NCBI GenBank assembly: GCA_965217895.1
Contig: CBDCJV010000002.1
Location: 4,736,001 to 4,800,000, forward strand
DNA: 64,000 nt
Direction of reading: 5' to 3'
Source of the DNA: Waterburya sp.
Lineage (GTDB): Bacteria > Cyanobacteriota > Cyanobacteriia > Cyanobacteriales > Xenococcaceae
The translations under genes and the position numbers were made by a program. Numbering within the stretch: the stretch's first letter is position 1; every line of letters starts with the position of its first letter. Below the pieces are notes generated by a model. That model saw nothing but the letters and a program-made list of their open reading frames with translations. It had not been told where the DNA came from and did no database searches. Below, in pieces: positions 1 to 61,620 of this stretch.

Positions 1-226
1 ATTCTGCTAATTCTCCCAAAAATCCTCCCAAGCGAGTATAAATTCTGTCATTCTCTGTAGACTGAGGATCGCAAAAAGATAACGCCCAATTATCTGGTGC
101 TTTGGTAATTGCATCTACTTTATTGAGAATGTTTTGCCAATAAACCTGTAGATTTTCGGCTTGGGGAAACAATGCAGACATACCGACAATTGCAATATCG
201 CTAGAAGCAGAAACAGAATTCATCAT
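1..226 (-). CDS. Type I PKS, N-terminal ketosynthase fragment (runs off window edge)
   Basis: Manual translation from ATG at 226/223 gives MMNSVSASSDIAIVGMSALFPQAENLQVYWQNILNKVDAITKAPDNW...RIYTRLGGFL, a typical KS N-terminus; begins 20 nt after the stop of the large PKS. Confidence 0.85.
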   Translation of the reverse strand, partial: MMNSVSASSDIAIVGMSALFPQAENLQVYWQNILNKVDAITKAPDNWALSFCDPQSTENDRIYTRLGGFLGELAE

Positions 227-246
227 TGATTTGCTGAGGGAGTAGA

Positions 247-3200
247 TTAACTATTACAGGGACTGACAATATTTTCTAAATGAAAATGAACATTATTTTG
301 TCGGTCAAAAAAGACTACATCATAGGTCAGAGTAGTTTGCTCAACTTGAGTTATGCGCAGAGCAGCATTTAGAGTAGCCATAACAGTAGGCTGATAATAA
401 CGAGTTACAGTTTTAAAATAAGCTGCTGGCAAAATCTTTAGATTTTGCTGTTCTTTTCCCCAAATAGTAGCTAGCTGGGATGCCGTATCAATTAATCCAG
501 GATCGAACAACCAACGCGGTTTCGGCAATTTTAAAGAATTAAGCCAGCCTTGAGGATTGCTCAGGTTTACTTGAGCATCAAGCCCTTGATTATTGAGGTA
601 ATTAACTTGATTAATTAGTTGAAGGCGTTGCTTTTTGGATAAGTGCTGCTGATAGATAGTATGTGCATCGAGATTATTTCCCTGCTTCAAAGCAGTAAAT
701 GGTACTTGGGAAGTCTCTGCTAATTGAGGGCGTAATAAAACTGAGGCGCGATAGTAAGAAATATTTTCTTGTGTATTGACAAGTTCGACGGGAACAGAAA
801 GTGAGCTTGAATCAGCGTGAGTCGAAGCACGAGCTTTAATGCTAATGAGTTTGCTTGACTGGGGTTCAATCGTCAATGTCTGGAGAACTTTTAAATCTCT
901 GACTTCGACTATTGCCCAGTCTGACCAAGCCTTCTGGACAAATTCGGCGATCCACTCTAGAGCAACTACAGGGCTTAATTCCAGCAGACCACCTATTTGA
1001 TAATCCAAAAGGTAAGGATCGCTAGCTACTGTCAAAGCATGATCTAGAATAACGCTGCCATTTGGCTTGAGTTGCAGCTCAGAACGTATCAGTGGATAGT
1101 TTGAAATTGAATCGTCCTTGGCTTTTGATATCTTGTTTTTGCTATTTTCGTTTGCCAGTGCTGCTTCAGATATTTCCCAGGGTCCCTCTCCAGCAATCAC
1201 TTCCGCTGAGTTTAAACAGCCATGTAATATTTCTTGAAGAAAAAACTGTCGCCCTGAAGCTAAGGGGATAGGAATAATTTGTTGCTGGCGAAATTGACGC
1301 TTCACTTCAGCAGAAGCCATTCCAGTAGTATCCCAAGGACCCCAATTAATTGCTACAACTCGCGTAGAAGACCACTGATGATTAAGTTGCCAGGCAAAAC
1401 GATTAATAACTTCGTTGACCGAGCCATAGTCTGATTGACCTCGATTACCATAACGACCAGCTACAGAGCTAAAAATCACCAGTAATTTGAGCGTCTCTGG
1501 TCGCAGATGTCGCGCCAAGATATAAAGACTATCTGCCTTAGTATCAAAAACACGCTCAAATGATTCTGGAGTTTTATCAACAATTAGCTTGTCTTCGATT
1601 ACTCCTGCTCCATGAATTACTGCATCTAAACGCCCATAGCGTTGATAAATTTCCTCGATGATTGTTTTTAATTCGTTTTCTTGGCGAACATCGGCACTTA
1701 GATATTTGATTTGCGCCCCACTATTACCCAGGCGTTTAATGTTAAGCAAAATTTCTCTGTTTCTGAGAATTTGACGAATTGTAGATTCAATCTGGGCTGG
1801 AGTAACTTTAATTTGTTGCTCAATGGCTTGCTTAATCAGTATGCGTTTTAGGGTGGCAGAGTCGTCAATTCCCTGCGTTACTGGTGATTCACTAGCAGGT
1901 TGGGGAGAACGTCCGACCAAGATTAAGGTCATTTTTGCCTGAGCGATCGCCTCTGCCACTTCCGCAGTTATGCCTCTTGCGCCACCAGTTACTAAGATCA
2001 CCCAGTCAGATTTTGGGGTTAAAATTGGATTGCTAGCTGTGCTTAGTGGTGCCAGAACAGTTTTAAAAATAGTGCGCTGATTTTGGGGATAACCAACTTC
2101 CAGGCGATCGCCTATTAGAAGTTCCTGAACGACGAAATTACTTAAGGTTTGAGCGTCGCTGTGAGGCTCAAAATCTACCGCGATCGCCTGTACTCCAGCC
2201 CATTCTTTGACTAAGGTTTTAAGAATTCCTACCGCTCCGCCAGTGGTTGGTAAGCCCACTTTTGAGTGAGAACGCCCAAAGGCTCCGCCTAAGGTTGATG
2301 CAGAGAGTATATATGCCTCTTGGTTTTTACCTGCTGTCTGGAGGTCTTGAGAACATAGCTGTAGAAGATAATAAAAATTCTTGACCTGAACAGTTGCTGA
2401 GTTTCGCCACTCAGACAAACTTTCAGGAAGATCGGCTGTGGTTATTCCCGCCAAATGAACGATACCTTTTATCGAACCGTGACGTTGACGAAGCCGATCG
2501 ACAGATGCTTTAATGCTTTGTCGATTAAGCAAAGTTGTGCGAGGCAAAATAGCACAGATTGCCCCTTTACTTTGTAGTTGCTCTGCCACAATAGAAGCAC
2601 AATCACAAGAATCTTCAGTAATCAGAAAAAGTCCTTGAAGACATAGTGCTTCTCTAGAAGGCAAGTCTTCCTGAACTGCCTGCATCAGGTAGCGAGGAGT
2701 CTGTTCGATTAAATTTGTCAGAGTTAAAGTAGAACTAGAATTTGTTCCCACACCACCTCCGACTCTAGGCTTTCCCAGGCGAAAATCCCCCTCAATTGAC
2801 GCTAGCAATTGTTCGATGAGTGCATTGAGAGACTTAACTGCTGTCAAGCTTTCCATCTGCTGATTTAACCTGTCGGCGTGCTGGGCGGGAAGACTTTTTA
2901 GCAATGAACCGACTATTTCCACTCGCTTAATAGAATCGATACCTAATTCTGCTTCTAGATCTTGGTTTAGCCCTAGCATATCTGCAGGATAACCAGTAAG
3001 TTCACTGACTAACTTCAGTAACTGTTCGGTCAAGCTAGCTCGATCAAAAGCTGGGAGAGAAATCAAAGCGGATGATGCACCAGAATTATTCCCCAAAACT
3101 AGTGAATTATTCTCAGTCTCAAAAGAGCTAGGAGAAAGTACAGCTAATAATTGCTCGATGAGTGCATTAAGAGACTTAACGCTAGTTAAGTTTTCCATTT

Positions 3201-6200
3201 GCCGATTTAACCTGTCGGCTTGCTGGGCGGGAAGACTTTTTAATAATGAACCGACTATTTCCACTCGCTTAATAGAATCGATTCCTAATTCTGCTTCTAG
3301 ATCTTGGTTTAGCCCTAGCATATCTGAAGGATAACCAGTAAGATCACTGACTAAGCTTAGCAACTGGGTAGTTAGACTAGCACGATCAAACGAGGCAGGA
3401 TTTCTTGAAGAAGCAGATTTTCCTGAACTATTCCCAGGAGTTAAGATTGTTGGTGCTTGAGTAGAAAAGGGAACAGAAACAGAATTAATATTTGGTAGTG
3501 TTGTGGTGGGCGAACTACTACTCCGCCCATTTGATTTTTGTGACCCCATCATGGGAATATTTGAGGAAGCAGCAGCTACGGGCTGAAATTGGTTTTGGGT
3601 AATAGATGCTCTCGTCTCTGGAGATTGAGCAGAAGAGAATAATGAGCTTGCGCCATTGGAAACAGGAGCAGAATAAATTATCGGTGGCGCGGACATTGAT
3701 GGGATTTTTCTGCCATTGAAATTAGGCTCAGATGTTTGGGGAAGACTCAAAGGAGAATCAGCTATTGACTGGCTTCTAAGAGACTGAGAAGTTGAATTTG
3801 GCTGTCCTTGAATGCTAGCTAAAAACTGCCGCATTACCTGCTCTTGTACTGAAAGAAACTGGCGCATAGTTTCTTGATAAGCTTGATATGCCTCTAAAGC
3901 TATGGATTTTTCTTGGGTCATAGTGAGATTAGGACGATTAGCCTGGTGGGATAAATTTTGCTTGAAAGAATGCTTAGTTAAAGGGAGTTTTGAATGGGAG
4001 AAACCATTGTCAACTGGACTAGATCCTGACTGAACATGAATAGGTGATTGAAAACTGCTTGGTCTGACGGCAACTTGCTGGGGTATTCGCCCTCTATCTT
4101 CTTTGAGCGAAGTCAAAAGATGAGGTTGGGAATTTGGCGCAAATTTAGCTTGAATAGGTTGTGATTTGGTTGTTTGCTCCTGGGTTTGCTGAAATGTTTC
4201 ATAATTTAGATGAGGACGCTGACCTGGATGACCAACTGCTTCTGTGTGTGGTCTGGCAGTTCCGCCATTGACCAACCAAGCAGTTCTGGGGAGTGGAGGC
4301 TTGCTGGTTGTCGCCACCAAACGAGATAAATCTAGGACATTTACATCGCGTTCTGCAAATAAAGCAGATAAATTAAGTTTCACGCCTAAAATCGCTAACT
4401 GACCCAAAGATTGTAAAAGCCCATTCAGACCTCCGCCATTGCCATCCAAGGAAACACTGAGATGCTCTTTACCTTCCATAATCATGGTGGTCAATTTGGT
4501 TAATACGCTCTTCGGTCCAATCTCAATAAAAACACGAGCTCCATCGGCATACATCTGTTCAATTTGCTGAACAAATTCTACTGGAGCGAGCATATGCTGA
4601 GCTAGCTGCTCCTTGATAGCGGAGGGTTTAGAATCGTACGCCCTAGCGGTTACATTGCTGTAAACAGGTATTTGCGGAACGTTGATGGCAGTTTGCTTAA
4701 TGGCGATCGCTAATTGTTCGGCGGCTGATGTCATAAATGGCGTGTGAAAAGCTCCTGTAATGTCTAACATTTTGACTTGAAGCCCTTCATTTCTCATAGA
4801 ATTGACGACCTGCTCAACGCCCAGCCGCTTACCAGAAATAATCACCTGTAGAGGCGCATTATGGTTTGCTAGGCGTACCTCATTGACGTTTTCTAGGCGT
4901 TTGAGAATCTCTTCTCTCGAAAGTCTGGCTGCTGCCATAGCGCCTTCTGACTCAGCAAAAGCTTGAGCGCAGATGTGTCCCCTTAAAGCAGAAAGGCTGA
5001 TGTAGTCTTTTGCTGCCAAGCATCCTGCTGCCATAAGCGCGGTATATTCACCATAGCTGTGTCCCGCTACCATATCGGCTTTTAACTCCAGCCTTTTAGT
5101 GAAAGCCAGTAGACCAGTTTCTAAAGCACAAAGGGCGGGCTGTGCAACTTGGGTTGCCCGCAAATCCTTAATTTGTTTTGCTTCGTCTGCTGAGGAATAA
5201 GTACCTGGGGGATAAATATACTGGCTGATTAATTTAGGCAGTGTTCCCTGTATCTTGGCATCAACTACCTCAATCGCTTTTCTTACTTCTGGTAAATATA
5301 AGGCTGCTTCTCTTCCCATTTGTGGATACTGACATCCCTGTCCAGGAAACAGAAAAGCTACTTTTCCTGAGGCCAGAGCCTCATTTCTGGTAATAATTTT
5401 AATAAAGGGGGGTAGAGGGACGGTTCTACTTCCCCTAAGAGAATCTAAAGCAATAGCTAGAGCAGATTTTAACGCTTCTAATCCATCGGTGACGATGCTT
5501 AACCCTATTTTTAAATCGCACCGCTCAAATTCTAAAGCGTAAGTGTACGCTAAATCCCTTAGTCTAGGAGCAGCTCCTGCTTCTAAGGCAGCTAATAAAG
5601 TTTGTGCCTGATGCTGTAAGTCGTTTTGATCCGCAGCCGATAATAAAATTAATTCGTGGCTCCAAGCATCTCCTCCTGGAATTTCAGGGCTTAAGCTATG
5701 GCTATATTCTTCTAGTACCGCATGAAAATTTGTACCACCAAATCCAAACGCACTCACCGCGCCTCTACGGGGATAATTGGGAGAAGCAATCCAAGGTCGA
5801 GCATCTTTAATTAGATAAACGGGGCTATTCTCATCCTGAATCGGCTCTAAAGGATTTTCGACATTGCGATGAGGAGGCATAACTCGATGGTGCAGAGAGA
5901 GTGCCACCTTGATTAGAGCTGCTGCTCCAGCCGAGCTTTTGGTATGACCAATCATCGTTTTGACTGAACCAATAGCGCAAGACTTACTGGTTGCCTGATG
6001 ATCTTGAAGAGCCTGCAATAAAGTCTCTAATTCTGCACTGTCCCCTACGGAAGTTCCCGTGCCGTGAGCCTCATATAGATCGATAGTGCTGGGGGAGAAT
6101 CCTGCTTGGCTATAGGCTCTTTGGAAAGCTCTTTGTTGACCAGCAGGCAGAGGTGCGGTTAGTCCCAAGGCTTTTCCATCGCTGGAGCTAGAAACTGCCT

Positions 6201-9117
6201 TGATCACAGCATAAATGCGATCGCCATCTCTCTTTGCATCTGCTAAACGCTTTAAGACAACTATGCCAGTACCTTCACTAATAGCGATTCCGTCCGCATC
6301 TTGATCGAAACTGTGGCATTTTCCTCTAGGAGACAAGGCTTGGGTTTTGCTAAAGGCAGAAAAGGCAAATGGACTCTGAACGGTATCGACTCCGCCTGCA
6401 ATGGCGACATTGGCTTGCCCAGTCACAAGTTCCTTAGCTGCCAAGTCAATAGCTGCCAAAGAGGATGCACAGGCTGCATCAACCGTAAAATTAGAGCCAC
6501 CAAGATCGAAGCGACTAGCTATTCGACCCGCAACTACATTCAACAACATTCCAGGGAAAGAATCTTCCGTCCATTCTGGTAAACGTTCCCAGGATTCTGC
6601 TGAAGTCGAACCAATGATTCGCGGAATTTCTGAACGAGCTGCATATTGTTGACCCAAATCGCCCACACCACCACCACAGCCAAGAATCACGCAGGTATTT
6701 TCTCGATCAAAATTTCCATCTTCATAACCAGCATCAATCAATGCCAGGCGAACAGCTTCTAACGTAATTAGCTGCATCGGCTCAATAAATTTTAGAGACT
6801 TGGGCGGAATCCCAAAGCGCAGCGGATCGAAGACGACATCATCGAGAAACCCACCCCACTTGGAATAAATCTTATCTTTGGCATGGCGATCTTCATCATA
6901 GTAGATACGCCAATCCCATCTTGACTGAGGAATTTCGGTGATTGCATCCACTTTGTTAAGTATATTTTCCCAATACTGCTGTGGATTGTTCGCTTTGGGC
7001 AATAATGTTGCTATGCCTACAATGGCAATATCTGCCTGCTTGCTAGAGCTAAAGTTCGCTGAACTTGAGGTCAGTTGGGATAAATAATCTGTTCCAGTTA
7101 CGCAGACATCTTCATGTAGTTTTTGAACACTATATAGCTCGTCTCTTAGAGTTGCTACCTGACCAATCATATACATACCATCTGCGACCTGTCGCTCTTC
7201 TTCGACAGTTACTATGTCACCTGTGGCATCCCGCTGCAGACCTTTGGATGCAACACGCAGACGACCTAAAGTCAGATCTTCTAAAGCTTCTTTGATTCGT
7301 TCTGTAGATTCTCCTGCCGCCGTCATAAGGCGACGGGTTTCATAAAACTCTAAAGCAAATGGTGTAACTGCACAGCGACTAGCGTGTCCAGGTCCAGTTT
7401 CCAAGTTCACAGTTTTTTTACAGGCTAAAACTTCAGTCTGAAATTTTGGGACGATCGCTCCATGTTGAACTGCTTCATTAGTCAAGGTGTAGGCTGTACC
7501 CATCAGCACTCCAATCCGAAATCCTCTCTCGGCTAAAGGGGCTGCCATACAAGAAATCATTGCTGCGGAGCGACCATCGTGAATGCCCCCTGCAAAGAAA
7601 ACGTGAACTTCAGACTCTGTGCCCGATGGCGTATGTTGCAGTAAAGCATCAATCATACTTTCCCAAAGCACGAAACTGCTCAAGGGACCTACATGACCGC
7701 CACATTCTCGCCCTTCAAAAATGAATCTTCTTGCTCCTGCCTCTAAAAATATCTTGAGCAAGGTTGGTGTCGGCACGTGAAGATAGGTAGCAATCCCTTC
7801 TGCTTCAAGCTTTGTAGCCTGATCGGGGCGACCTCCAGCTATGATAGCAAAAGGAGGTTTGATAGCGCGGATAACCTCTAGCTGCTTTTCGCGTAAAGCA
7901 TGAGGAACAAAGCCCAAAATCCCCACCCCCCAGGAACGTCCTGCCATTAATTTCTGAGCTTGGGTGAGTAATGTTTGTACCTGGGATTGACGCATCATCG
8001 CTAAAGCTAGCATCGGTAAACCTCCACCCTGAGCGATCGCCTGGGCAAATTCAGCCACGTCACTAACTCTGGTCATGGGACCTTGCATGATCGGAAACTT
8101 GGTTTTGTGGGAAACTGCTAATGGCGAATCAGGCTGGAGTGGGCGCAGTTCTTTTGCCTTTTGAATGTGTTCTTCGCTGGCTTTAAGCAAAGCCTGGATT
8201 AAGCGCCCGGTAGTTTTATATAGACCCGCAAACTTGGCTGCTAATCCTACAGCTTGCCCCATGGGACAAGCAACGGTACGAGGATCTCCCCAGCCTATAA
8301 GAGCCTCGGCTTGCTGTCGCCAAACTCTCGTTCTGGTTGGAGAATCTCCCTGTTGGACTTCTAATTCTTCAGCCAGAGATTGAAGTACTTCAACTTGGCG
8401 AAAACCAGGACGGGAAAGAACTCGATAAGATTGCCCCAAACGTTCTCCTACAATAATTGCTTCCTGCCCGTTGAGATTTTTTAGATAACCGCGCATTTGA
8501 ACCGTCAGCGGTGATTCTGGCATTAACCATAGTTGGTCATCGAGAAATACTCCCGCAGCTCCCGCAGCTCGACAAGCTGCTGCTGTATGTATGCCAATCC
8601 CGCCCTGGACATAAATAGGCGTAGATCCTGCTTGGCACAGTTGTTGAGTCAAAATAAAGGCTGAGGTATCGCTACCCCAGCCTCCTGCTTCATGTCCCTT
8701 TGCTACTAGTCCTGAAACCTGAATCCCATTAGACTCCAGTTTTATCGCTTCTTCTAGGCTAAAAACTTCGAGGAGTATTTGCCGATTAGGTAATTCAGGT
8801 AAAGCTGCCAAACATGATGGCAATGAATCAATTGACCAGTCGCAAATCACTAACCAGTGCGACCTTTTAGCAAAATCACTCAGTAAAGTTTTGTAGTGAG
8901 CAACTTGATTTTCCTTGAGGCGCAAGCCAATCTCTTCCTCAGGCTTGGTAAAGTTCAGCAACTGCTGCCAATTACTTAGAACTAATTCTTGTTCATTTTT
9001 GTGACTAAATTCCAAATCTAATAACCCTACTCCTCCAGCCCTGGCAGCAGCGATCGCCACTTTGGCATGAGTTAATCCAGCCGGTATCAAGGCAAAGCAG
9101 CGGAATAGATTCATCAT
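247..9117 (-). CDS. PfaA/PUFA-synthase-like iterative type I PKS: 2x FabK/PfaD (NMO-like) flavin domains, KS, AT, 2x ACP, KR, degenerate DH
   Basis: GHEAGG and EGRECGGH (FabK/NMO-like); DAACASS, EAHGTGT and GHTK (KS); GHSYGE and GAFHT (AT); two ELGIDSIKRVEI (Pfa-type ACP); TGGARGIT and YGSVN (KR); C-terminal LLDYQIGG..LSP and DPGLID (DH-like). Confidence 0.9.
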   Translation of the reverse strand: MMNLFRCFALIPAGLTHAKVAIAAARAGGVGLLDLEFSHKNEQELVLSNWQQLLNFTKPEEEIGLRLKENQVAHYKTLLSDFAKRSHWLVICDWSIDSLPSCLAALPELPNRQILLEVFSLEEAIKLESNGIQVSGLVAKGHEAGGWGSDTSAFILTQQLCQAGSTPIYVQGGIGIHTAAACRAAGAAGVFLDDQLWLMPESPLTVQMRGYLKNLNGQEAIIVGERLGQSYRVLSRPGFRQVEVLQSLAEELEVQQGDSPTRTRVWRQQAEALIGWGDPRTVACPMGQAVGLAAKFAGLYKTTGRLIQALLKASEEHIQKAKELRPLQPDSPLAVSHKTKFPIMQGPMTRVSDVAEFAQAIAQGGGLPMLALAMMRQSQVQTLLTQAQKLMAGRSWGVGILGFVPHALREKQLEVIRAIKPPFAIIAGGRPDQATKLEAEGIATYLHVPTPTLLKIFLEAGARRFIFEGRECGGHVGPLSSFVLWESMIDALLQHTPSGTESEVHVFFAGGIHDGRSAAMISCMAAPLAERGFRIGVLMGTAYTLTNEAVQHGAIVPKFQTEVLACKKTVNLETGPGHASRCAVTPFALEFYETRRLMTAAGESTERIKEALEDLTLGRLRVASKGLQRDATGDIVTVEEERQVADGMYMIGQVATLRDELYSVQKLHEDVCVTGTDYLSQLTSSSANFSSSKQADIAIVGIATLLPKANNPQQYWENILNKVDAITEIPQSRWDWRIYYDEDRHAKDKIYSKWGGFLDDVVFDPLRFGIPPKSLKFIEPMQLITLEAVRLALIDAGYEDGNFDRENTCVILGCGGGVGDLGQQYAARSEIPRIIGSTSAESWERLPEWTEDSFPGMLLNVVAGRIASRFDLGGSNFTVDAACASSLAAIDLAAKELVTGQANVAIAGGVDTVQSPFAFSAFSKTQALSPRGKCHSFDQDADGIAISEGTGIVVLKRLADAKRDGDRIYAVIKAVSSSSDGKALGLTAPLPAGQQRAFQRAYSQAGFSPSTIDLYEAHGTGTSVGDSAELETLLQALQDHQATSKSCAIGSVKTMIGHTKSSAGAAALIKVALSLHHRVMPPHRNVENPLEPIQDENSPVYLIKDARPWIASPNYPRRGAVSAFGFGGTNFHAVLEEYSHSLSPEIPGGDAWSHELILLSAADQNDLQHQAQTLLAALEAGAAPRLRDLAYTYALEFERCDLKIGLSIVTDGLEALKSALAIALDSLRGSRTVPLPPFIKIITRNEALASGKVAFLFPGQGCQYPQMGREAALYLPEVRKAIEVVDAKIQGTLPKLISQYIYPPGTYSSADEAKQIKDLRATQVAQPALCALETGLLAFTKRLELKADMVAGHSYGEYTALMAAGCLAAKDYISLSALRGHICAQAFAESEGAMAAARLSREEILKRLENVNEVRLANHNAPLQVIISGKRLGVEQVVNSMRNEGLQVKMLDITGAFHTPFMTSAAEQLAIAIKQTAINVPQIPVYSNVTARAYDSKPSAIKEQLAQHMLAPVEFVQQIEQMYADGARVFIEIGPKSVLTKLTTMIMEGKEHLSVSLDGNGGGLNGLLQSLGQLAILGVKLNLSALFAERDVNVLDLSRLVATTSKPPLPRTAWLVNGGTARPHTEAVGHPGQRPHLNYETFQQTQEQTTKSQPIQAKFAPNSQPHLLTSLKEDRGRIPQQVAVRPSSFQSPIHVQSGSSPVDNGFSHSKLPLTKHSFKQNLSHQANRPNLTMTQEKSIALEAYQAYQETMRQFLSVQEQVMRQFLASIQGQPNSTSQSLRSQSIADSPLSLPQTSEPNFNGRKIPSMSAPPIIYSAPVSNGASSLFSSAQSPETRASITQNQFQPVAAASSNIPMMGSQKSNGRSSSSPTTTLPNINSVSVPFSTQAPTILTPGNSSGKSASSRNPASFDRASLTTQLLSLVSDLTGYPSDMLGLNQDLEAELGIDSIKRVEIVGSLLKSLPAQQADRLNRQMENLTSVKSLNALIEQLLAVLSPSSFETENNSLVLGNNSGASSALISLPAFDRASLTEQLLKLVSELTGYPADMLGLNQDLEAELGIDSIKRVEIVGSLLKSLPAQHADRLNQQMESLTAVKSLNALIEQLLASIEGDFRLGKPRVGGGVGTNSSSTLTLTNLIEQTPRYLMQAVQEDLPSREALCLQGLFLITEDSCDCASIVAEQLQSKGAICAILPRTTLLNRQSIKASVDRLRQRHGSIKGIVHLAGITTADLPESLSEWRNSATVQVKNFYYLLQLCSQDLQTAGKNQEAYILSASTLGGAFGRSHSKVGLPTTGGAVGILKTLVKEWAGVQAIAVDFEPHSDAQTLSNFVVQELLIGDRLEVGYPQNQRTIFKTVLAPLSTASNPILTPKSDWVILVTGGARGITAEVAEAIAQAKMTLILVGRSPQPASESPVTQGIDDSATLKRILIKQAIEQQIKVTPAQIESTIRQILRNREILLNIKRLGNSGAQIKYLSADVRQENELKTIIEEIYQRYGRLDAVIHGAGVIEDKLIVDKTPESFERVFDTKADSLYILARHLRPETLKLLVIFSSVAGRYGNRGQSDYGSVNEVINRFAWQLNHQWSSTRVVAINWGPWDTTGMASAEVKRQFRQQQIIPIPLASGRQFFLQEILHGCLNSAEVIAGEGPWEISEAALANENSKNKISKAKDDSISNYPLIRSELQLKPNGSVILDHALTVASDPYLLDYQIGGLLELSPVVALEWIAEFVQKAWSDWAIVEVRDLKVLQTLTIEPQSSKLISIKARASTHADSSSLSVPVELVNTQENISYYRASVLLRPQLAETSQVPFTALKQGNNLDAHTIYQQHLSKKQRLQLINQVNYLNNQGLDAQVNLSNPQGWLNSLKLPKPRWLFDPGLIDTASQLATIWGKEQQNLKILPAAYFKTVTRYYQPTVMATLNAALRITQVEQTTLTYDVVFFDRQNNVHFHLENIVSPCNS
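2801..3390 (-). repeat. Tandem near-identical ACP-coding repeats (about 2801-3048 and 3143-3390)
   Basis: Long shared DNA blocks offset by 342 nt, e.g. TAGAATCGAT at 2931 and 3273. Confidence 0.9.
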
Positions 9118-9236
9118 TAAATACTTCTCAAAGTTTTGTTAGCACTACATTTACGGTCATCAGTTGCGTTACAGCATAATTACTTGCGTAGATGTACTGA
9201 GCTACCTGTACTTATACATCACTTTTCTTAAATAAT

Positions 9237-9250
9237 GTAATTCAAATTAC
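9237..9250. promoter_or_regulatory. Possible NtcA box in the divergent PKS/halogenase intergenic region
   Basis: GTA-ATTCAAAT-TAC matches GTA-N8-TAC; no clean TAN3T -10 at the canonical spacing toward the PKS, and the region is AT-rich. Confidence 0.3.
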
Positions 9251-9755
9251 TAATTTAAATTTTGAAACATATAATTATTTCTCATTAATTACAAGGTAAC
9301 AAAATGTAACTTTATAATCGATCAATAGCATTGATAATAAAGCTGTTTGCTAATAATAATATTTAGTAAATCAAAGATGCAAAAGACCCAGTATGTATCA
9401 AAAAATACAGAAAAACCAGAATAATTAACTTTATATCGATAAGCGCGGAAAAAATTTTTCCTAGTTTTAAATTTCAAATTGATGATAACGTGAGACTGTA
9501 AATTTAAAATAATTTTTAGATTTACCCTCAATTTCACGTCTAAAGTTTTCTAATAGTTGAGCTACCAAATTGGCAATTTAGTCGTGCATTCTACGTAATT
9601 TCTGCTAGAGTTCAACCACTGTCTTAACTAGAAACATTCAGCAGCGGGCATAACAATTTTTTAACCTAGCTCAATACTCTTCTACTTGTATGTAGTTCCC
9701 ATCATAAACAGATGATTTTGCACAACCCTTCATTTTTAACGGAGAAAATTAAATC

Positions 9756-10931
9756 ATGAGGCTAGTTACTGGTAAAGGATTTTTTCGGATTAGATGGACT
9801 GCGCTATATATTCTCTCTAAGCTCAAGTTTCTCCACGGTTTCTTATCCAAAGATACTAGGGACAGATTACCAGTTGGTTGGAACAATAAGATGTTCTGGC
9901 TTACTTTTAAGACCAATGGCAGAGAAGTATTTGGTGATTACTATGTTCCTTTGCGGGAACCAAATTCATACCAACCAAAGGTAAAGGTCGCCGAAGAATA
10001 TCACTTTACAGAAGAAGAAATCCGTAATTTTTACGACAAAGGTTTTATCGGACCTTTTACGTTGATGTCTCCAGAGGAAGCCGAGACGTTGAAACAGCAC
10101 GCAATTGAAATTGCCGAAAGTCCTTCAAAAATCTATTCTTATGAAGATGGCGATTACGAAATCGGTTTGACTCAAGAGGAAAACGTCAATAATAATTCTG
10201 GAGATGCCATCCTCAGTAACAGAGAGATGGGTCAAAAGAAAATGAACTGGCGCGATCGCCATTTAGAAGATGACGCTCTGCTTTCCTTATTTAAAAGTCC
10301 AGAGGTTACAGAAAGATGTGCGCAGCTTCTAGGGCCTGATTTAGTCTTGTGGAGGACTCAGTTTTTTCCCAAATCGAAGTCAATGTGTGGTACTCCTTGG
10401 CATCAGGCAACAACCTACCTATTTGACAATATGGCAGAGAATGTAGTGCAACCCCAAGACCCGTCGCAACTATTTCAGTTGACCGTTTGGATTGCCCTTA
10501 CTGATACTCCACGAGATAAAGCTCCTATGGCTTTGGTAAGAGGGAGTCATCGCGATATCTATCCTGTTATGGGTGGGCAAGAATTTAAGGCAGATCCCAA
10601 TGCCAAAAGAGAAGCAAATCGCCTCGGAACTATGTCTGTTACCCTCAAACACGAAATCAAACCCGAAGATGTTAATGTCGTGGAGATGAAAGCAGGTCAA
10701 TTTTTCATTTTTAGCGAGCGCGCACTCCATAGTTCCCTGGATAATCAACAAGAAGAATGGCGTTGGGCGATAAACGGTCGGATTGTTCCCACTCATACTC
10801 GTGTATATACGGACAAGATGTTGAATGAGGGTCATCTTTACCGAACTAATAATATCGTTAATCTTACTCTGGATAAGTGGAAAGGCATCTTGATTAGAGG
10901 CAAAGACCGTTTTGGATTGAACAGAATTTAA
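9756..10931 (+). CDS. Non-heme Fe(II)/2-oxoglutarate halogenase, SyrB2/BarB/CmaB-like (PhyH fold)
   Basis: GFIGPF, DRHLEDD, LGPDLVLWRTQFFPK, GTPWHQA (H216-X-A218), distal H325 in FFIFSERALHSS, and R..P...VY all parallel SyrB2-type enzymes; GGAG Shine-Dalgarno upstream. Confidence 0.8.
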   Translation: MRLVTGKGFFRIRWTALYILSKLKFLHGFLSKDTRDRLPVGWNNKMFWLTFKTNGREVFGDYYVPLREPNSYQPKVKVAEEYHFTEEEIRNFYDKGFIGPFTLMSPEEAETLKQHAIEIAESPSKIYSYEDGDYEIGLTQEENVNNNSGDAILSNREMGQKKMNWRDRHLEDDALLSLFKSPEVTERCAQLLGPDLVLWRTQFFPKSKSMCGTPWHQATTYLFDNMAENVVQPQDPSQLFQLTVWIALTDTPRDKAPMALVRGSHRDIYPVMGGQEFKADPNAKREANRLGTMSVTLKHEIKPEDVNVVEMKAGQFFIFSERALHSSLDNQQEEWRWAINGRIVPTHTRVYTDKMLNEGHLYRTNNIVNLTLDKWKGILIRGKDRFGLNRI

Positions 10932-10966
10932 GCTTCAAGCTTTGTCAATCGGATTTAGTATAACTA

Positions 10967-12262
10967 TTGTTTAAGAACTTTCGTTCTCTTTCTTTAGAGA
11001 CTAAGCAAATTCTCAGAATATTATTTATTTCTGGTCTGCTGTTTTGGTCAAGCTTGGCCTGTATGTTTCCTACCTTACCTTTGTACCTAGAAGATATTGG
11101 TCTAGAGCCATTTCAGTTAGGAATTGTCATTGCTAGTTTTGGTATTGGTGTTTTGCTTTCCCGCCCCGTCTTAGGCAAGCTGTCAGACTTACATAGTCGC
11201 AAGCTGGCTCTTATAATTGGTATGTCAGCAATGGCGATCGCACCAGTCGGATATTTAATCCCGCCAACGATGCCAATTATGATTGTAGTCAGAATTGTTC
11301 ATGGCGTTAGTCTGGCTGGATTTGCCTCTGCTTACCTGACATTTGTTGCCGACTTAGTTCCAGTGGCAAACCGAGGTGAAATCATGGGATATATGAGCTT
11401 GCAGCAACCCCTGGGACTTGCTTTCGGACCTATTATTGGCGGAGGATTGCTAGAGCTAACAAATCAGTATGCAATCTCCTTTGTGGCAGCTTCAGCTTTA
11501 GGAATCGGAGCAGTGCTGACTGCTTGCTGTTTACCAAAGCGATCGCCTCTGGAGCAACCGAAGAAAAGTCATCGCCTATTTTGGCACATATTTACTAAAC
11601 CCTATCTGCGTATACCTTCAGTAGTTATGACATTAGTTGGTATCTCAGTTGGTGGACTGCAAACCTATGTTTCGCCTTATATACGCTCAATGGCGGTTAA
11701 CTTAAGTCCTGGTTGGTTTTTTACCGTCATGGCAATATTTACTTTTTTGATCCGCTGTTTAGCTGGTTCTCGATCTGACCATTGGGGACGAGGGATTTTT
11801 ATTACCTATAGCTTAGTCTTCTCTTTGAGTGCGATGATTTTACTGTACAAAGCTCACAACGCTTTAACGTTAATCTTTGCAGCTATGCTACAGGGATCTG
11901 GATATGGAATTTTGGTGCCAATGATCGCCGCTTTGATAGCCGATCGCTCCGCCACCAGGGAGCGAGGAAGATCTTTTAGCCTCTGTATGATGGGCTTCGA
12001 TCTGGGTCTAATTTTGGGTGGACCGATGCTGATCAATGCTGCTGCAATTGTAATTTCAGGTGAAGTTGAGACAAATCTGAGGCTCTACCGCTATCTCTTT
12101 TGTCTGGCTGGAGGATCGATTACCCTAAGTTTGTTATTATTTTTGGCTTATGGCGGGGGGAGTTTTTCTCAATCAATTAAATTTGCCATTGGTCGGGGTC
12201 AAGATATTTACAGCCTAAATCTTCATCAACAGAATCATACTAAAGATCGCTCTGTCATTTAA
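10967..12262 (+). CDS. MFS transporter
   Basis: About 12 hydrophobic segments; motif A-like GKLSDLHSRK and GSRSDHWGR. Confidence 0.9.
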   Translation: MFKNFRSLSLETKQILRILFISGLLFWSSLACMFPTLPLYLEDIGLEPFQLGIVIASFGIGVLLSRPVLGKLSDLHSRKLALIIGMSAMAIAPVGYLIPPTMPIMIVVRIVHGVSLAGFASAYLTFVADLVPVANRGEIMGYMSLQQPLGLAFGPIIGGGLLELTNQYAISFVAASALGIGAVLTACCLPKRSPLEQPKKSHRLFWHIFTKPYLRIPSVVMTLVGISVGGLQTYVSPYIRSMAVNLSPGWFFTVMAIFTFLIRCLAGSRSDHWGRGIFITYSLVFSLSAMILLYKAHNALTLIFAAMLQGSGYGILVPMIAALIADRSATRERGRSFSLCMMGFDLGLILGGPMLINAAAIVISGEVETNLRLYRYLFCLAGGSITLSLLLFLAYGGGSFSQSIKFAIGRGQDIYSLNLHQQNHTKDRSVI

Positions 12263-12359
12263 AGTCAAAAGTCACGAAGAACTTGTCTGCACGTAGTCAG
12301 AAGTTTAAAACTAATATTGAGAAAATGTATTCATGTAAGAGATCTAATTAACAAAACTA

Positions 12360-14036
12360 ATGAAAATAGCGATCGCCCAACTTAACCCCACCATCGGCGA
12401 TATAACCAATAACGCCCAACAAATAATTGCTGCTGCTAATACCGCTGCTAAACAAAACGTACGTTTGTTACTTACTCCTGAATTATCGCTGTGTGGCTAT
12501 CCACCCAGAGACTTGTTGCTTTATTCTGACTTTGTGGAGTCGATGGCGCAAGAGCTGAAGGCGATCGCCAGGAAATTACCAGATAAGATTGCTGTCTTGG
12601 TTGGCACTGTAGAAAGAAATCCTCATGCAAACTCCAAAGGACAAAAACCTTTATACAACAGCATGGCTTTATTGGCTGAGGGAGAAATAAAGCAGATTTT
12701 TCATAAGCGTTTGTTGCCTACCTATGATGTATTTGATGAAGATCGTTATTTTGAACCTGGATATGAAGCCAATTATTTTACCTTGGACGATCTAAAGGTC
12801 GGCGTGAGCATCTGTGAAGACCTGTGGAATGATGAACAGTTTTGGGGGAAACGCAGCTATGAAATTAATCCTATTGAAGAATTGGCACAGTTAGGGGTAG
12901 ATATAATTGTTAACCTGTCAGCTTCTCCCTATAGCGTCGGTAAACAGAAGTTAAGAGAAGCGATGCTATATCATGCAGCTACAGCTTATCAGAAGCCCAT
13001 TTTGTACGCTAATCAGGTTGGGGGTAATGACGATCTGATTTTCGATGGTAATAGCGTGATGTTTAATCGTGCAGGGGAATTAGTCAGTCATGCTCAAAGT
13101 TTTGATACAGACTTGGTGGTAGTGGAGTTCGATCGGTTGCTGTCTTCTTCTATGGGAAACTGGGTGACAAAGAGACTGAGTGATAAAGATAGTAATGAAG
13201 AGATATTTTCCGCGTTGGTGCTGGGAGTCAAAGATTATGCCAGGAAATGTGGTTTTAGTCAGGCTATTTTAGGCTTGAGTGGGGGCATAGATTCAGCTTT
13301 GGTAGCCGCGATCGCTTCTTCGGCTTTGGGTGCAGAAAATGTATTCGGGGTACTAATGCCGTCTCCCTATAGTTCAGATCATTCCGTTAGCGATGCGATG
13401 GATTTGGTTAATAGTTTGGGGATAAAAAGCCAGCAGTTAGCCATCAAGCCAGGGATGGACGCTTATGATACTATTCTCGATCCTTTGTTTACGGGAACAG
13501 AATTTGGCATTGCCGAAGAAAATATCCAGTCGCGGATACGGGGTAATTTGCTAATGGCGATCGCCAACAAGTTTGGTTATTTGCTGCTTTCTACGGGTAA
13601 CAAGTCAGAAATGGCTGTCGGTTACTGCACTCTTTATGGCGACATGAATGGTGGCTTGGCGGTAATTGCTGATGTGCCAAAGACGAGGGTATTTGAACTG
13701 TGTCGCTGGCTCAATCGCCAACAAGAAGTAATCCCCGTTAATATTATTACTAAGCCTCCCAGTGCCGAATTAAAGCCAGAACAAAAAGACTCTGATTCTT
13801 TGCCACCTTATGAAATACTAGACGATATACTCGAGCGCATTATTTGTCTACATCAATCAACCGCCGACATCGTTAAGGCTGGACACGACACAGAAACTGT
13901 AGCTAAAGTAATGAAATTAGTTATCCGTGCAGAGTTTAAACGCCGTCAAGCCCCTCCAGGAATCAAGATTACCGATCGCGCCTTCGGTACTGGCTGGCGG
14001 ATGCCTATTGCTAAGAGGTTGTCGGCAGTAAAATAA
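12360..14036 (+). CDS. nadE: Glutamine-dependent NAD+ synthetase
   Basis: Nitrilase domain (PELSLCGYPPRD, ICEDLW) plus NAD synthase domain (LGLSGGIDS, ENIQSRIRG, TGNKSE). Confidence 0.96.
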   Translation: MKIAIAQLNPTIGDITNNAQQIIAAANTAAKQNVRLLLTPELSLCGYPPRDLLLYSDFVESMAQELKAIARKLPDKIAVLVGTVERNPHANSKGQKPLYNSMALLAEGEIKQIFHKRLLPTYDVFDEDRYFEPGYEANYFTLDDLKVGVSICEDLWNDEQFWGKRSYEINPIEELAQLGVDIIVNLSASPYSVGKQKLREAMLYHAATAYQKPILYANQVGGNDDLIFDGNSVMFNRAGELVSHAQSFDTDLVVVEFDRLLSSSMGNWVTKRLSDKDSNEEIFSALVLGVKDYARKCGFSQAILGLSGGIDSALVAAIASSALGAENVFGVLMPSPYSSDHSVSDAMDLVNSLGIKSQQLAIKPGMDAYDTILDPLFTGTEFGIAEENIQSRIRGNLLMAIANKFGYLLLSTGNKSEMAVGYCTLYGDMNGGLAVIADVPKTRVFELCRWLNRQQEVIPVNIITKPPSAELKPEQKDSDSLPPYEILDDILERIICLHQSTADIVKAGHDTETVAKVMKLVIRAEFKRRQAPPGIKITDRAFGTGWRMPIAKRLSAVK

Positions 14037-52305: not shown

Positions 52306-54087
52306 ATGAGTGGTTTAAAAAATAAGATTAAAGCAGCTACCCTAGTCGATATCCTCCGTAATCAGGCTGAAGAAAAGCCTCATCAAACTGTATATAATTA
52401 CCTAATTGATGGAGAAACAGAAGAAGCTAGCCTTACCTATGGTCAGTTGGAAAAGAAGGCAAAAGCGATCGCCGCCTATCTTCAATCTGTATGTTCTCCT
52501 CAAGATCGGGTTTTGTTGTTATACCCCTCTAGCTTAGACTATATTACTGCTTTTTTTGGTTGTCTTTATGCCGGGGTAATTGCTATTCCCGCTTATCCTC
52601 CCAGACCTAACCGCTCTTTAAACCGCATCCATAATATTTTGCAAAATGCCCAGACTAATCTGGCTTTGACCAATACTGAAACACTATACGGTCTTCAGCG
52701 TCAATTAGAAAATACCACAGAGCTACAAAGCTTACGCTGGATTACGACAGATACAATCAACGATGATTTGGGGCAAGATTGGCACGAACCAAATATTTCC
52801 GAAGATAGTCTCGCTTTTTTACAATATACCTCTGGTTCGACGGCAGAACCAAAAGGGGTCAAAATTGCTTACAGGAACTTGCTGCACAACATGGAGGCTA
52901 TCCATCGCTGCTTTAGGCACTCTCCCGAAAGTAACGGGGTAATTTGGCTGCCTCCGTACCATGATATGGGTCTAATTGGCGGTATTCTCCAGCCTCTTTA
53001 TGGCGATTTTCCCGTGACCTTGATGTCGCCCTTGATGTTTTTGCAAAATCCTCTACGTTGGCTTAAGGCAATATCTCGCTATAAGGCTACTACCAGTGGC
53101 GGCCCCAATTTTGCTTACGATCTTTGTGTACGTAAATTCAAACCAGAACAGCTAACGGACTTAGATCTTAGTAGTTGGCAGGTAGCATTTAATGGTGCAG
53201 AGCCAATTAATCATGAAACTCTAAATAAATTTGCCACTACCTTTGCGCCCTATGGTTTTAAGTATTCTGCTTTTTATCCTTGCTATGGCATGGCAGAAGC
53301 CACTTTAATTATCTCAGGTGGTTCAAAAAACTCAGCAGTAGTAACCAAAACCGTGCAAGGAAAAGCTTTAGAACAAAATCAAATTGTGCTTGCCGATCTT
53401 AACGAGCCTCATCCCCATACTTTAGTAAGCTGTGGGATGGGTCTAAACGATCAAAAAATTGCGATCGCCAATCCTGAAACTATGGTTAGCTGCAAACCAG
53501 GAGAAGTAGGCGAAATTTGGGTATCTGGCTCTAGTATTGCCCAAGGCTATTGGCGACAACCCCAAATAACGAAAGAAACTTTTGGAGCTTACCTTCAAGA
53601 CACTAAAGAAGGGCCTTTTTTGCGTACAGGTGATTTAGGCTTTGTCGATCGAGGGGAGTTATTTTTTACTGGTCGTCTCAAAGATATGATTGTGATCAAA
53701 GGTCGCAATCATTATCCCCAAGACATAGAAAAAACCGTTGAAGATACTAACTCTTGGATCAGACCAAGCTGCGTTGCTAGTTTTTCCGTCAATATTCAAG
53801 GAGAAGAGAAACTTATTGTTCTAGCTGAGGTTGAGCGTCGTTACTGGAGTAGCAATCGCTCTGTTAAAACTGCTTCTAATGGTAATTCTTCGGCTAACGA
53901 AATGATTAATGTTAAGGATTTAACTCAAATCATTCGACGAGAGATTTCTAAAAACCACGACTTACAGGTATATACTACCCTGTTGCTCAAGCCTGGTAGT
54001 TTACCCAAAACCTCTAGCGGTAAAATTCAACGTCATGCCTGTCGTACCGAATTTCTGGCTAATACTATAGAAGGTTTGCCCATTTAG
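52306..54087 (+). CDS. Standalone fatty acyl-AMP ligase (FAAL)
   Basis: AFLQYTSGSTAEPKGV, WLPPYHDMGLIG, PCYGMAEATL, GRNHYPQDIE, LPKTSSGKIQR; no fused ACP. Confidence 0.92.
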   Translation: MSGLKNKIKAATLVDILRNQAEEKPHQTVYNYLIDGETEEASLTYGQLEKKAKAIAAYLQSVCSPQDRVLLLYPSSLDYITAFFGCLYAGVIAIPAYPPRPNRSLNRIHNILQNAQTNLALTNTETLYGLQRQLENTTELQSLRWITTDTINDDLGQDWHEPNISEDSLAFLQYTSGSTAEPKGVKIAYRNLLHNMEAIHRCFRHSPESNGVIWLPPYHDMGLIGGILQPLYGDFPVTLMSPLMFLQNPLRWLKAISRYKATTSGGPNFAYDLCVRKFKPEQLTDLDLSSWQVAFNGAEPINHETLNKFATTFAPYGFKYSAFYPCYGMAEATLIISGGSKNSAVVTKTVQGKALEQNQIVLADLNEPHPHTLVSCGMGLNDQKIAIANPETMVSCKPGEVGEIWVSGSSIAQGYWRQPQITKETFGAYLQDTKEGPFLRTGDLGFVDRGELFFTGRLKDMIVIKGRNHYPQDIEKTVEDTNSWIRPSCVASFSVNIQGEEKLIVLAEVERRYWSSNRSVKTASNGNSSANEMINVKDLTQIIRREISKNHDLQVYTTLLLKPGSLPKTSSGKIQRHACRTEFLANTIEGLPI

Positions 54088-60198: not shown

Positions 60199-61620
60199 AT
60201 GAAAATAGCTATAAATAAATCAAAAAAGCGTCATAACATCTTCATCCCAGTTTTGGTAGCATTAGGCTTGGTTTTAATTGGTTTCACTACCTATCGCCTT
60301 GTCAAAAGTTCCAAATCAGAAGTAGATATTAACGCTTTAACCGTTCCTGTAAATAAAGAAAATTTAAATGTAGAAATTGCAGCTAGTGGCAGAGTCGAGC
60401 CGATCAAAAGCGTCAACGTAAGTCCCAAAGAACCTGCGCGGCTAATCAAATTATTGGTAGAGCAAGGCGATCGCGTCAAGGCAGGACAAACCCTAGCCAT
60501 CATGGAAAACGCCGAACTAGGAGTGGGAATCGATCAAGCAAGAGCCGATTTCAAACAAGCCCGCGCTAGCCTCACCGAAGGAGAAGCAAAAGTAAATGCC
60601 GAAATTGCTCAAGCAGAAGCTAGGCTCAAACAGGCTCAAGCCAAATTAAATCAAGCTCAAAATAGAATTCCTGCCGATATAGGGCAAACTCAGTCACAAA
60701 TTGCTGCTGCCGAATCTCGTTTACGACTTGGACAAGAGCGACTTCAGCGCAATAAATATCTTTTGCGACAGGGAGCTATTACTCAAGATGCCTTTGATGA
60801 AATTACCAATAATTATCAAAACGCCCAATCTGAGATTAAAGAGTTGCGCGAACGACTAGAACAGTTTAAGAGTACAGGAGGCTCTGAAGTTGAACAACTC
60901 AAAGCAGAAATAAATGAAGCTAGAATCTCTCTCCAACAAAAACAGGCAACTGCACCCGATGAGATAGCTGGATTAGAAGCATCCGCAGAAAAAGCAGAAG
61001 CATCCCTCAAGCAGTCAGAAATTAAATATGGCGACAGTATAGTCAAAGCTCCTTTTACAGGTGTTGTCACTCAAAGATATGCCGTGGAGGGTTCTTTTGT
61101 TGCCCCAAGTACTTCTGGCTCTAGTACTGAGTCAGCTTCTGCCACCTCAATCTTGGCATTAGCTCAAGGATTAGAGGTAATTGCCAAAGTTCCAGAGTTA
61201 GATGTAGGTCAGCTACAGCCAGGACAAAAAGTTAAGATTGTCGCCGATGCTTACCCAGAGCAAGTATTCACGGGTGAAATCAAACGCATTGCCCCTGAAG
61301 CAATAATTGAAGAAGAGGTTACTTCTTTTGAAGTACGGGTCAAGCTGCTTACAGGTGAGAATGTACTGCGCTCTAAAATGAATGTTGATGTCACTTTTAT
61401 TGGCAAGGAACTAAATAATAGCTTGGTAGTTCCCACAGTGGCGATATTTACCCAAAATGGAAAACAGGGAGTAATGATACCTGATGCGGAAAACAAGCCT
61501 AAATTTCAGCCTGTCAAAGTGGGGCTGTATTTAGGAGATAAAACGCAAATTATTGATGGAGTTAAGGCTAATCAAAAAGTATTTATTGACCTACCCAATC
61601 AGAAAAAGAAAGAAAAATAA
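60199..61620 (+). CDS. Efflux periplasmic adaptor (HlyD/MacA-like membrane fusion protein)
   Basis: N-terminal TM; VEQGDRVKAGQ and APFTGVV lipoyl halves; long coiled coil. Confidence 0.9.
   Translation: MKIAINKSKKRHNIFIPVLVALGLVLIGFTTYRLVKSSKSEVDINALTVPVNKENLNVEIAASGRVEPIKSVNVSPKEPARLIKLLVEQGDRVKAGQTLAIMENAELGVGIDQARADFKQARASLTEGEAKVNAEIAQAEARLKQAQAKLNQAQNRIPADIGQTQSQIAAAESRLRLGQERLQRNKYLLRQGAITQDAFDEITNNYQNAQSEIKELRERLEQFKSTGGSEVEQLKAEINEARISLQQKQATAPDEIAGLEASAEKAEASLKQSEIKYGDSIVKAPFTGVVTQRYAVEGSFVAPSTSGSSTESASATSILALAQGLEVIAKVPELDVGQLQPGQKVKIVADAYPEQVFTGEIKRIAPEAIIEEEVTSFEVRVKLLTGENVLRSKMNVDVTFIGKELNNSLVVPTVAIFTQNGKQGVMIPDAENKPKFQPVKVGLYLGDKTQIIDGVKANQKVFIDLPNQKKKEK

Follow-up and report, generated by a model that had tools for sequence, protein, structure and literature searches.

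A strain-specific island in a Waterburya genome with a Pfa-related lipid synthase, a sulfotransferase and a SyrB2-like enzyme: a candidate pathway to a chlorinated, probably sulfated lipid

The 64,000-nucleotide stretch of the Waterburya sp. genome analyzed here (contig CBDCJV010000002.1, positions 4,736,001 to 4,800,000; "the window" below) carries near its left end genes for two large iterative polyketide synthases (PKSs), PKS1 and PKS2, and, divergent from them, genes for a putative SyrB2-type Fe(II)/2-oxoglutarate (2OG) halogenase and a major facilitator superfamily (MFS) transporter. These genes belong to a strain-specific island of seven genes that extends to the left of the window and includes a sulfotransferase (ST) gene. 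Together the island genes may give rise to an exported long-chain lipid that is chlorinated and probably sulfated, the halogenase serving the product of the synthase; judged from gene content, our confidence in this reading falls a little short of even. Several contextual lines appear to tie the synthase operon to the halogenase, though the two are not a conserved pair. The new element would be the sulfate-linked combination, as the SyrB2-type halogenases and the Pfa/Ars-type lipid synthases are known kinds. The gene arrangement that the original prediction had read from the window alone is borne out: a giant PKS and a second ketosynthase (KS) gene lie on the minus strand (open reading frames [ORFs] 247..9117 and leftward from 226), the divergent gap given as about 640 bp measures 638 bp (9118-9755), and a 2OG-Fe enzyme with an H-Q-A motif is followed 35 nt downstream by an MFS gene (10967..12262, plus strand).

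Among all PDB sequences, the best phmmer match of the halogenase is SyrB2 (E = 7.8e-29), followed by CytC3 (2.1e-27). Its iron site consists of His216-Gln217-Ala218 and the distal His325; the counterparts of His216, Ala218 and His325 in SyrB2 are presumably His116, Ala118 and His235. The sequence WHQAT aligns residue for residue with WHQAD of SyrB2, so that Ala218 replaces the acidic iron ligand. An AlphaFold model (AF2, built on 33 relatives) has a pLDDT of 91.9, and a Foldseek comparison of this model with the PDB again places SyrB2 at the top (E = 1.6e-24, TM-score 0.78) and CytC3 next, while the hydroxylases ThoJ, SnoN/K, EctD and PhyH rank below them; CurA Hal is absent among the Foldseek matches listed. 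The window enzyme thus has in common with SyrB2 and CytC3, its best matches in both sequence and structure, the PhyH-type fold and the His-x-Ala...His iron site, but identity is only ∼25%, and it has an N-terminal extension of ∼78 aa that SyrB2 lacks. The extension is conserved and confidently folded, and W42 and M46 within it are invariant. The window halogenase is a member of a separate, N-terminally extended SyrB2-like subfamily. A set of 5.8 billion proteins contains 318 members of the family at E ≤ 0.001, most of them cyanobacterial and a number from Myxococcota, Bacteroidota and Planctomycetota. All 76 family proteins drawn from genome loci have H216, Q217 and H325; at position 218, 57 of them carry Ala, 7 Ser, 4 Gly, 4 Thr, 3 Asn and 1 Glu.

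PKS1 scores 1146.4 bits against NCBIfam model TIGR02813 (PfaA; cut-off 1010.1) and so passes it, and it matches the PfaA-like order of KS, acyltransferase (AT), tandem acyl carrier proteins (ACPs), ketoreductase (KR) and dehydratase (DH) of the Pfa polyunsaturated fatty acid (PUFA) synthases, preceded by an enoyl reductase (ER) domain. The tandem ACPs are also a DNA repeat (2801-3000 versus 3143-3342, 93% match). PKS2 starts 20 nt downstream of PKS1 and contains a KS with an active-site Cys (DAACSSS), an AT (GHSTG), a linker and a PS-DH domain (LYDHTIGG, an HxxxG motif); a Pfam search of the whole protein found no ACP. Where the active PKS2 dehydratase reads DHTIGG the DH-like domain of PKS1 reads DYQIGG, so the latter probably lacks the catalytic His. 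PUFA synthases are defined by a PfaC-like KS-chain length factor (CLF) protein with a FabA-type DH pair. This defining feature is stated in part in the accessible portion of PMC3098273. A domain scan of PKS2 found neither a CLF nor a FabA-type DH; PKS2 is instead KS-AT-PS-DH, and the PfaC-like half of a PUFA synthase is not matched. The "Pfa-like" label of the original prediction therefore holds for PKS1 but not for the pair: lacking both a CLF and a FabA-type DH pair and having just two ACPs, the synthase is, on its domain content, Pfa-related and not a PUFA (Pfa) synthase proper. The ArsA/ArsD phenolic-lipid synthase of Azotobacter has the Ars domain order, with a KS-AT-DH subunit that ends in a phosphopantetheinyl transferase (PPTase). 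Like ArsA/ArsD and the Type O/P synthases, the window pair consists of an ER-KS-AT-ACP-KR-DH protein and a KS-AT-DH protein; it differs from ArsA/ArsD in that it lacks a type III PKS partner, carries only two ACPs and shows no detectable PPTase on PKS2, and its partners are sulfate genes. The accessible portion of PMC3098273 describes the synthase types F, G, O and P and lists Gloeobacter under "Type O", and Gloeobacter is among the organisms that have homologs of the synthase studied here. A C-terminal PPTase domain (PF01648) is present on 70 of 88 PKS2 homologs. As ER, KR and DH domains are all present, the synthase probably makes a long and largely saturated chain.

The 36 kb to the left of the window hold the remainder of the operon, whose order is PKS1, PKS2, a gene for an M50-like membrane protein, a gene for an HlyD-type adaptor and the ST gene, with gaps of 20, 34, -17 and 20 nt. 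The sulfate genes of the pathway thus lie beyond the view of the original prediction. Past a 513-nt gap beyond the ST gene come aroQ and housekeeping genes (GcvP/H, DHODH, ValS, CarB, UvrD and a HaeII-type restriction-modification pair). The original prediction saw no nonribosomal peptide synthetase (NRPS) in the window and left room for an NRPS adenylation-thiolation (A-T) partner in the left flank; no NRPS domain is present in window ORFs of at least 450 aa or in the 36-kb flank, which rules such a partner out. The M50-like protein is distantly similar to intramembrane HExxH metalloproteases (NCBIfam, 5e-11, far under the cut-off), and a protease role was ruled out, as none of five homologs has an HExxH or HxxxH motif. 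It may be a non-proteolytic export component. In four of five copies the M50-like domain is fused to HlyD (Table 1), and in the window strain (genome G000) the two are overlapping ORFs.

The edges of the island were set by DNA homology to two same-genus genomes, G475 and G487, in which nadE is 94-96% identical. On the left, homology stops at window positions -8219 (G475) and -8143 (G487), just past the ST stop codon at -8111, and on the right it resumes immediately before nadE. The strain-specific DNA between these edges amounts to ∼20.4 kb and contains exactly seven genes, the five-gene operon, the halogenase and the MFS gene; the divergent intergenic region has promoter-like hexamers on both strands (consensus matches only). 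The aroQ and nadE flanks, which border the island on either side in the window strain, are 1-1.6 Mb apart in G475 and G487, and the island therefore sits at a rearrangement breakpoint. Simple insertion of the island was considered and set aside: the aroQ-nadE adjacency it predicts for the relatives was not seen, so insertion cannot be shown. A query with the C-terminal part of PKS2 matched none of 17 same-genus and none of 27 same-family genomes; in the order sample 13 of 401 genomes matched, G000 among them. With the halogenase as query, 6 of 401 genomes of the phylum sample matched, again counting G000, and 0 of 2 of the same genus.

Homologous synthase loci were compared in ten of the 12 other positive genomes (all but G531 and G680), and both synthases are present at all ten. 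Within the stretches scanned, an ST is encoded at four of these loci (of the 301-aa type in G095 at 54%, G607 at 56% and G666 at 45%, and as an ACP-ST fusion in G298), APS kinase at two (G095 and G611), and a sulfatase-family protein of ∼275 aa beside PKS1 at five. In G607 and G611 a 530-aa phosphodiesterase-family protein, a hydrolase and short-chain dehydrogenases/reductases (SDRs) are encoded after PKS2, and the phosphodiesterase occurs alone in G095. The M50-like and HlyD parts recur at four loci, each time as one fused protein and never with HExxH. Variable oxygenases (TauD, cytochrome P450) are found at the G029 and G095 loci, and genes for alpha/beta hydrolases lie with those of the synthase in G298, G029, G607 and G611. 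Since sulfate genes surround the synthase in this way, a sulfate ester would be the likeliest head group of its product. A discrete ACP of ∼95 aa with an invariant Ser directly follows PKS2 at eight of the ten loci. This divergent carrier has invariant D40, F43, S45 and D47, and it forms the N-terminal part of an ST fusion protein in G000 and G298.

The halogenase family has sulfate connections of its own. When the neighbor genes of 77 halogenase loci were clustered by BLAST and one representative of each cluster was scanned with Pfam, the clusters found included SDRs (at 34 loci), Sulfotransfer_3 proteins (18 loci), KS-AT PKSs (14 loci) and two groups of fatty-acid desaturases (12 and 9 loci), as well as FabH-like, FAD-halogenase-like, methyltransferase and TauD clusters. 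An ST-cluster gene lies within 10 kb of the halogenase gene, often directly adjoining it, at 18 of the 77 loci. In a quick maximum-likelihood tree the window protein pairs with that of L006 (a G599 contig; support 99), and 15 of the 19 other rows of its part of the tree have an ST gene within 10 kb; none does in a 37-row methyltransferase/TauD clade or in a 19-row Planctomycetota/Acidobacteriota clade. Unlike the halogenases of the SyrB2/CytC3 class (also CmaB and BarB1/B2), the window enzyme has no NRPS A-T partner, and the neighbors of its family are STs, desaturases, SDRs and PKSs rather than NRPSs.

Three types of operon recur at these loci. The first, with FabH-like, desaturase, SDR, ST and halogenase genes, is present at L008, L030, L047, L051, L012 and L031 and in rearranged form at L007, L010 and L011. 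It spans unrelated cyanobacteria (Prochloron, Hormoscilla, Waterburya, Microcoleus and Richelia); the small ORFs scanned at these loci yielded no ACP, and we found no paper in the literature describing such an operon. The second, from Pleurocapsales (L013, L019, L021 and L048), encodes AurF-like proteins, a KS-AT-ACP-thioesterase (TE) protein, a type III PKS, the halogenase, an ICMT and an FAD enzyme along with two STs; its representative L048 comes from Hyella patelloides, and the accessible part of PMC7381351 terms that cluster orphan. The third is myxobacterial, with the order halogenase, ST, desaturase and MFS (L064 and L072). The Planctomycetota loci L054-L082 (e.g., L055:10001-12024) carry a distant halogenase clade (∼32% identity) with an SDR gene directly after it; this clade is often near a VKOR-DsbA fusion and has no ST.

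A second strain-specific locus in the window strain, L113, lies 1.07 Mb from the island. Its genes encode, in order, a 476-aa protein, a 446-aa ACP-ST fusion, a hydrolase of the platelet-activating factor acetylhydrolase (PAF-AH) type, a tetratricopeptide repeat protein, a 288-aa SyrB2-like protein, TauD and another hydrolase. Apart from the SyrB2-like protein, each of them has homologs of 41-64% identity beside the synthase pair in G095, G298, G607, G666 or G029. The 476-aa protein belongs to no Pfam family (a language-model lead suggests that it is sialidase-like), and its gene, used as a marker, was not found in the five same-genus genomes searched. The SyrB2-like protein has His-Gln-Thr at the iron site and SyrB2 as its best PDB match (3.9e-33), and its gene is the weaker match in the genome to the window halogenase. 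The pathway of G000 therefore appears to be split over two strain-specific loci, each with an acquired SyrB2-like enzyme that the loci of other genomes lack.

These genes suggest the following order of events. PKS1 and PKS2 would iterate on the two tandem ACPs, with the ER, the KR and the DH of PKS2, to give a long, mostly saturated and possibly hydroxylated acyl chain, the type of chain made by the related ArsA/ArsD-type synthases. A hydroxyl group of the chain would then be sulfated with 3′-phosphoadenosine 5′-phosphosulfate (PAPS) by the 301-aa ST of the operon, and L113 would supply the ACP-ST fusion and lipase-type hydrolases, along with TauD and another SyrB2-like enzyme. Using the radical mechanism of SyrB2, the His-x-Ala enzyme would place chlorine (or bromine) on an unactivated carbon of the chain, and export of the product would fall to the M50-like/HlyD pair together with the MFS pump. 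Other cyanobacteria with the synthase would make an unhalogenated sulfated lipid. SyrB2-type halogenases depend on substrates bound to carrier proteins. The carriers in the proposed pathway are the two PKS1 ACPs and the ACP-ST fusion of L113, and carrier-protein dependence is described for BarB1/B2 in the accessible part of PMC8406957. A predicted complex of the halogenase with a PKS1 ACP domain scored 0.00, which speaks neither for nor against binding, and the chances that the substrate is an ACP-bound chain or a released sulfated lipid are about even.

A number of observations weigh against this reading. The halogenase is found at none of the ten homologous synthase loci, an outcome that the original prediction had itself named as counting against it; its pairing is not a conserved unit, and the halogenase could be at most a lineage-specific addition to the synthase pathway. 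Of the 12 other synthase-bearing genomes one, G599, has a family member (57% identity), on another contig; G298 has a weak 32% match, and G029 and G095 have none at E ≤ 1e-30. Conversely, the ER, ACP, KR-DH and PKS2 C-terminal parts are found at 0 of the 77 halogenase-family loci, where tblastn with the proteins of the window cluster detected only generic KS-AT similarity (∼30-37%), one MFS (L051) and one ST (L064). The closest relatives of the halogenase (79%, then 61-66%) are on metagenome contigs of 1.4-19 kb; among proteins of at least 1625 aa in the 5.8-billion-protein set there is no PKS1 relative above 65% identity and none on contigs of the same lengths (shorter fragments would be missed), so the synthase may be missing even beside the closest of these halogenases. 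A metagenome scan with the halogenase gave five loci, none above 47% identity and none with the synthase. The operon ST is 17 kb away from the halogenase and belongs to a different subfamily from the halogenase-adjacent STs, with a single weak tblastn match (the L064 ST, 27%), and the counted loci and tree rows are related to one another, so that the counts overstate independent support. The halogenase scores 135.2 bits on the NCBIfam "chlorinating enzyme" model TIGR01762, below its cut-off of 226.3. Finally, Pfam detected no PF01648 domain on PKS2 or in its last 233 aa (L005:5499-6200(-)), and no thioesterase, reductase or PPTase was found in the island, which leaves chain release unexplained.

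The absence of the halogenase from all ten synthase loci would also fit an arrangement in which the halogenase-MFS module is functionally unrelated to the synthase operon and merely shares a variable, recombination-prone spot with it, acting on another substrate (for instance a membrane lipid, a free lipid or a different metabolite) that the MFS protein exports. The synteny breakpoint at the island agrees with this, as do the varied contexts of the family (e.g., methyltransferase/TauD clusters and SDR pairs in Planctomycetota) and the G599 family member, which stands alone among housekeeping genes (those for Tab2, TldD, a formyltransferase and GlyS); at L051, moreover, a 39%-identical MFS gene adjoins a halogenase fragment, so that halogenase and MFS genes may travel as a unit of their own. 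Nonetheless, the island has two sharp edges and holds only these seven genes, the synthase and halogenase families are each independently tied to STs, L113 also has a SyrB2-like gene, and G599, whose halogenase is the closest found in a genome, has the synthase pair as well. We therefore regard unrelated modules as unlikely, though by no means far-fetched. A gene for a CLC chloride channel that also contains CBS and Usp domains is situated 6.5 kb away from the G599 halogenase gene (L094:2333-4981(-), contig C35), which may be coincidence. The halogenated-lipid pathway of the original prediction is accordingly strengthened in some respects, by the single island, the ST in the operon and the links of the halogenase family to STs and lipid enzymes, and weakened in that the pairing is not conserved.

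Sulfation might, alternatively, be transient. In the logic of CurM and the olefin synthases (Ols), an ACP-ST-TE arrangement uses sulfate as a leaving group in chain off-loading; here a beta-hydroxyl would be activated on the ACP-bound chain, and release by a hydrolase and decarboxylation would give a chlorinated long-chain alkene or hydrocarbon without sulfate. The Ols domain order is given in the accessible part of PMC7381351. An ACP fused to a PAPS-type ST is indeed encoded at L113 and in G298, a discrete ACP follows PKS2 at most of the homologous loci, and alpha/beta hydrolases occur both with the synthase in the four genomes named above and in L113. However, these hydrolases are of the PAF-acetylhydrolase/chlorophyllase or a generic type and none is fused to an ST, no CurM-type or other fused TE was found here, and the ST of the island is free-standing and has no ACP. 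The sulfatase- and phosphodiesterase-family proteins and the dedicated exporters suit a stable sulfate ester better, and a transient sulfate seems quite unlikely.

It is very unlikely that the His-x-Ala enzyme acts in vivo as a hydroxylase or other oxidant and yields a hydroxylated sulfated lipid: the score below the curated "chlorinating enzyme" cut-off, the Ser, Thr, Asn and single Glu residues at position 218 in the family, the use of TauD or P450 oxygenases at related synthase loci, and the ability of one residue to switch between hydroxylation and halogenation in this class (accessible part of PMC8406957) could be taken in its favor, but Ala218 occupies the exact alignment position of the Ala by which SyrB2 opens its halide site, 61 of 76 family proteins have Ala or Gly there, and the two nearest solved structures are both halogenases.

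Returning to the reading of a chlorinated, sulfated lipid, no characterized cluster with this pairing was found described in the literature, as the original prediction had supposed. HctB and the Hal domains of CurA/JamE are domains or fusions inside modular assembly lines and set a precedent for radical chlorination of fatty-acyl/polyketide chains in cyanobacteria; unlike them, the window enzyme is free-standing beside an iterative synthase (compared by description only). HctB (hectochlorin) and the CurA/JamE Hal domains are named as Fe/2OG halogenases in the accessible part of PMC8406957. A closer chemical parallel may be the chlorosulfolipids, which are known from eukaryotic chrysophyte algae and from seawater; the chemistry predicted here would be alike. 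Chlorosulfolipids such as danicalipin A and malhamensilipin consist of a long saturated chain that bears sulfate ester(s) and is chlorinated at unactivated carbons, and chlorination after sulfation has been proposed for them. To our knowledge none of the enzymes that make polychlorinated sulfolipids has yet been identified, and we found no genes in the literature assigned to lipids of this type. A 2026 paper (PMC13413282) treats the marine chlorosulfolipid producers as unidentified, and a halogenase is never mentioned in its accessible part.

Outside the island, 40-48 kb away from it, the window also encodes a 593-aa AMP-binding protein similar to fatty acyl-AMP ligases (FAAL) and acyl-CoA synthetases, in which no carrier domain was found (52306-54087, plus strand), and a further HlyD-family adaptor (60199-61620, plus strand).

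Table 1. Coordinates of the island genes and domains and of related loci; plain numbers are window positions.
Feature	Position	Strand	Details
PKS1	247..9117	-	2956 aa; ER-KS-AT-ACP-ACP-KR-DH-like; ORF call and Pfam
ER domain of PKS1, NMO/FabK type	7105..8118	-	Residues 334-671; Pfam
KS domain of PKS1	5860..7032	-	Residues 696-1086; active-site motif DAACASS
AT domain of PKS1	4489..5355	-	Residues 1255-1543; Pfam
ACP 1 of PKS1 tandem (Pfa-type)	3130..3402	-	LGIDSIKRVEI motif; PP-binding
ACP 2 of PKS1 tandem	2788..3060	-	Residues 2020-2110; PP-binding
KR domain of PKS1	1330..1998	-	Residues 2374-2596; Pfam
DH-like domain of PKS1	820..1095	-	Residues 2675-2766; PKS_DH_N 26.3 bits, Pfam cut-off 27
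PKS2, N-terminal part in window	1..226	-	First 75 codons; ORF leaves the window
PKS2, complete	L005:5499-10226 = window -4501..226	-	1575 aa; KS-AT-PS-DH
M50-like membrane protein	L005:4172-5464 = window -5828..-4536	-	430 aa
HlyD-type adaptor	After M50-like gene, left of window	-	457 aa
Sulfotransferase, Sulfotransfer_3	After HlyD gene; stop at window -8111	-	301 aa
Divergent intergenic region, PKS1/halogenase	9118..9755	.	638 bp
SyrB2-type Fe(II)/2OG enzyme (putative halogenase)	9756..10931	+	391 aa; PhyH family (Pfam 4.6e-19)
MFS_1 transporter (drug/H+ antiporter-like)	10967..12262	+	431 aa; starts 35 nt past halogenase stop
Right island edge	12263..12355	.	Homology resumes at 12316 (G487), 12355 (G475)
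nadE, housekeeping	12360..14036		Next gene after right edge
Second strain-specific locus L113	G000:C2:3654000-3673999		Outside window; 1.07 Mb from island
M50-like/HlyD fused proteins	L083:1810-4437(-), L087:13540-16056(+), L099:12081-14408(+), L104:17192-19807(+)		Homologous synthase loci
Discrete ACP copies	L083:4583-4864(-), L086:476-736(+), L096:16274-16546(-), L098:14547-14831(-), L103:1040-1327(+), L104:11662-11934(-), L106:12405-12677(-), L108:13817-14095(+)		Directly after PKS2
Operon of FabH-like, desaturase, SDR, ST and halogenase genes	L008:5811-11176, L030:2803-8183, L047:6227-11092, L051:6990-10657, L012:6485-11116, L031:4379-11176		Halogenase-family loci

A wider proposal, which we put forward with low confidence, is that the missing halogenases of chlorosulfolipid-type lipids are the SyrB2-like family with the N-terminal extension, that these enzymes chlorinate sulfated long alkyl chains at unactivated carbons, that the producers include cyanobacteria, myxobacteria and Bacteroidota besides algae, and that in the window strain two such enzymes decorate the product of an Ars-type synthase. 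The synthase clusters form a widespread cyanobacterial family whose neighbors point to sulfated lipids, and we found no paper describing it. Radical halogenases that act on plain alkyl chains are sought as biocatalysts. The island, L113 and the related operons, with their iterative lipid synthase, sulfotransferases, distinct SyrB2-like family and exporters, amount to a concrete, cloneable gene set with which the chlorosulfolipid question would become directly testable.

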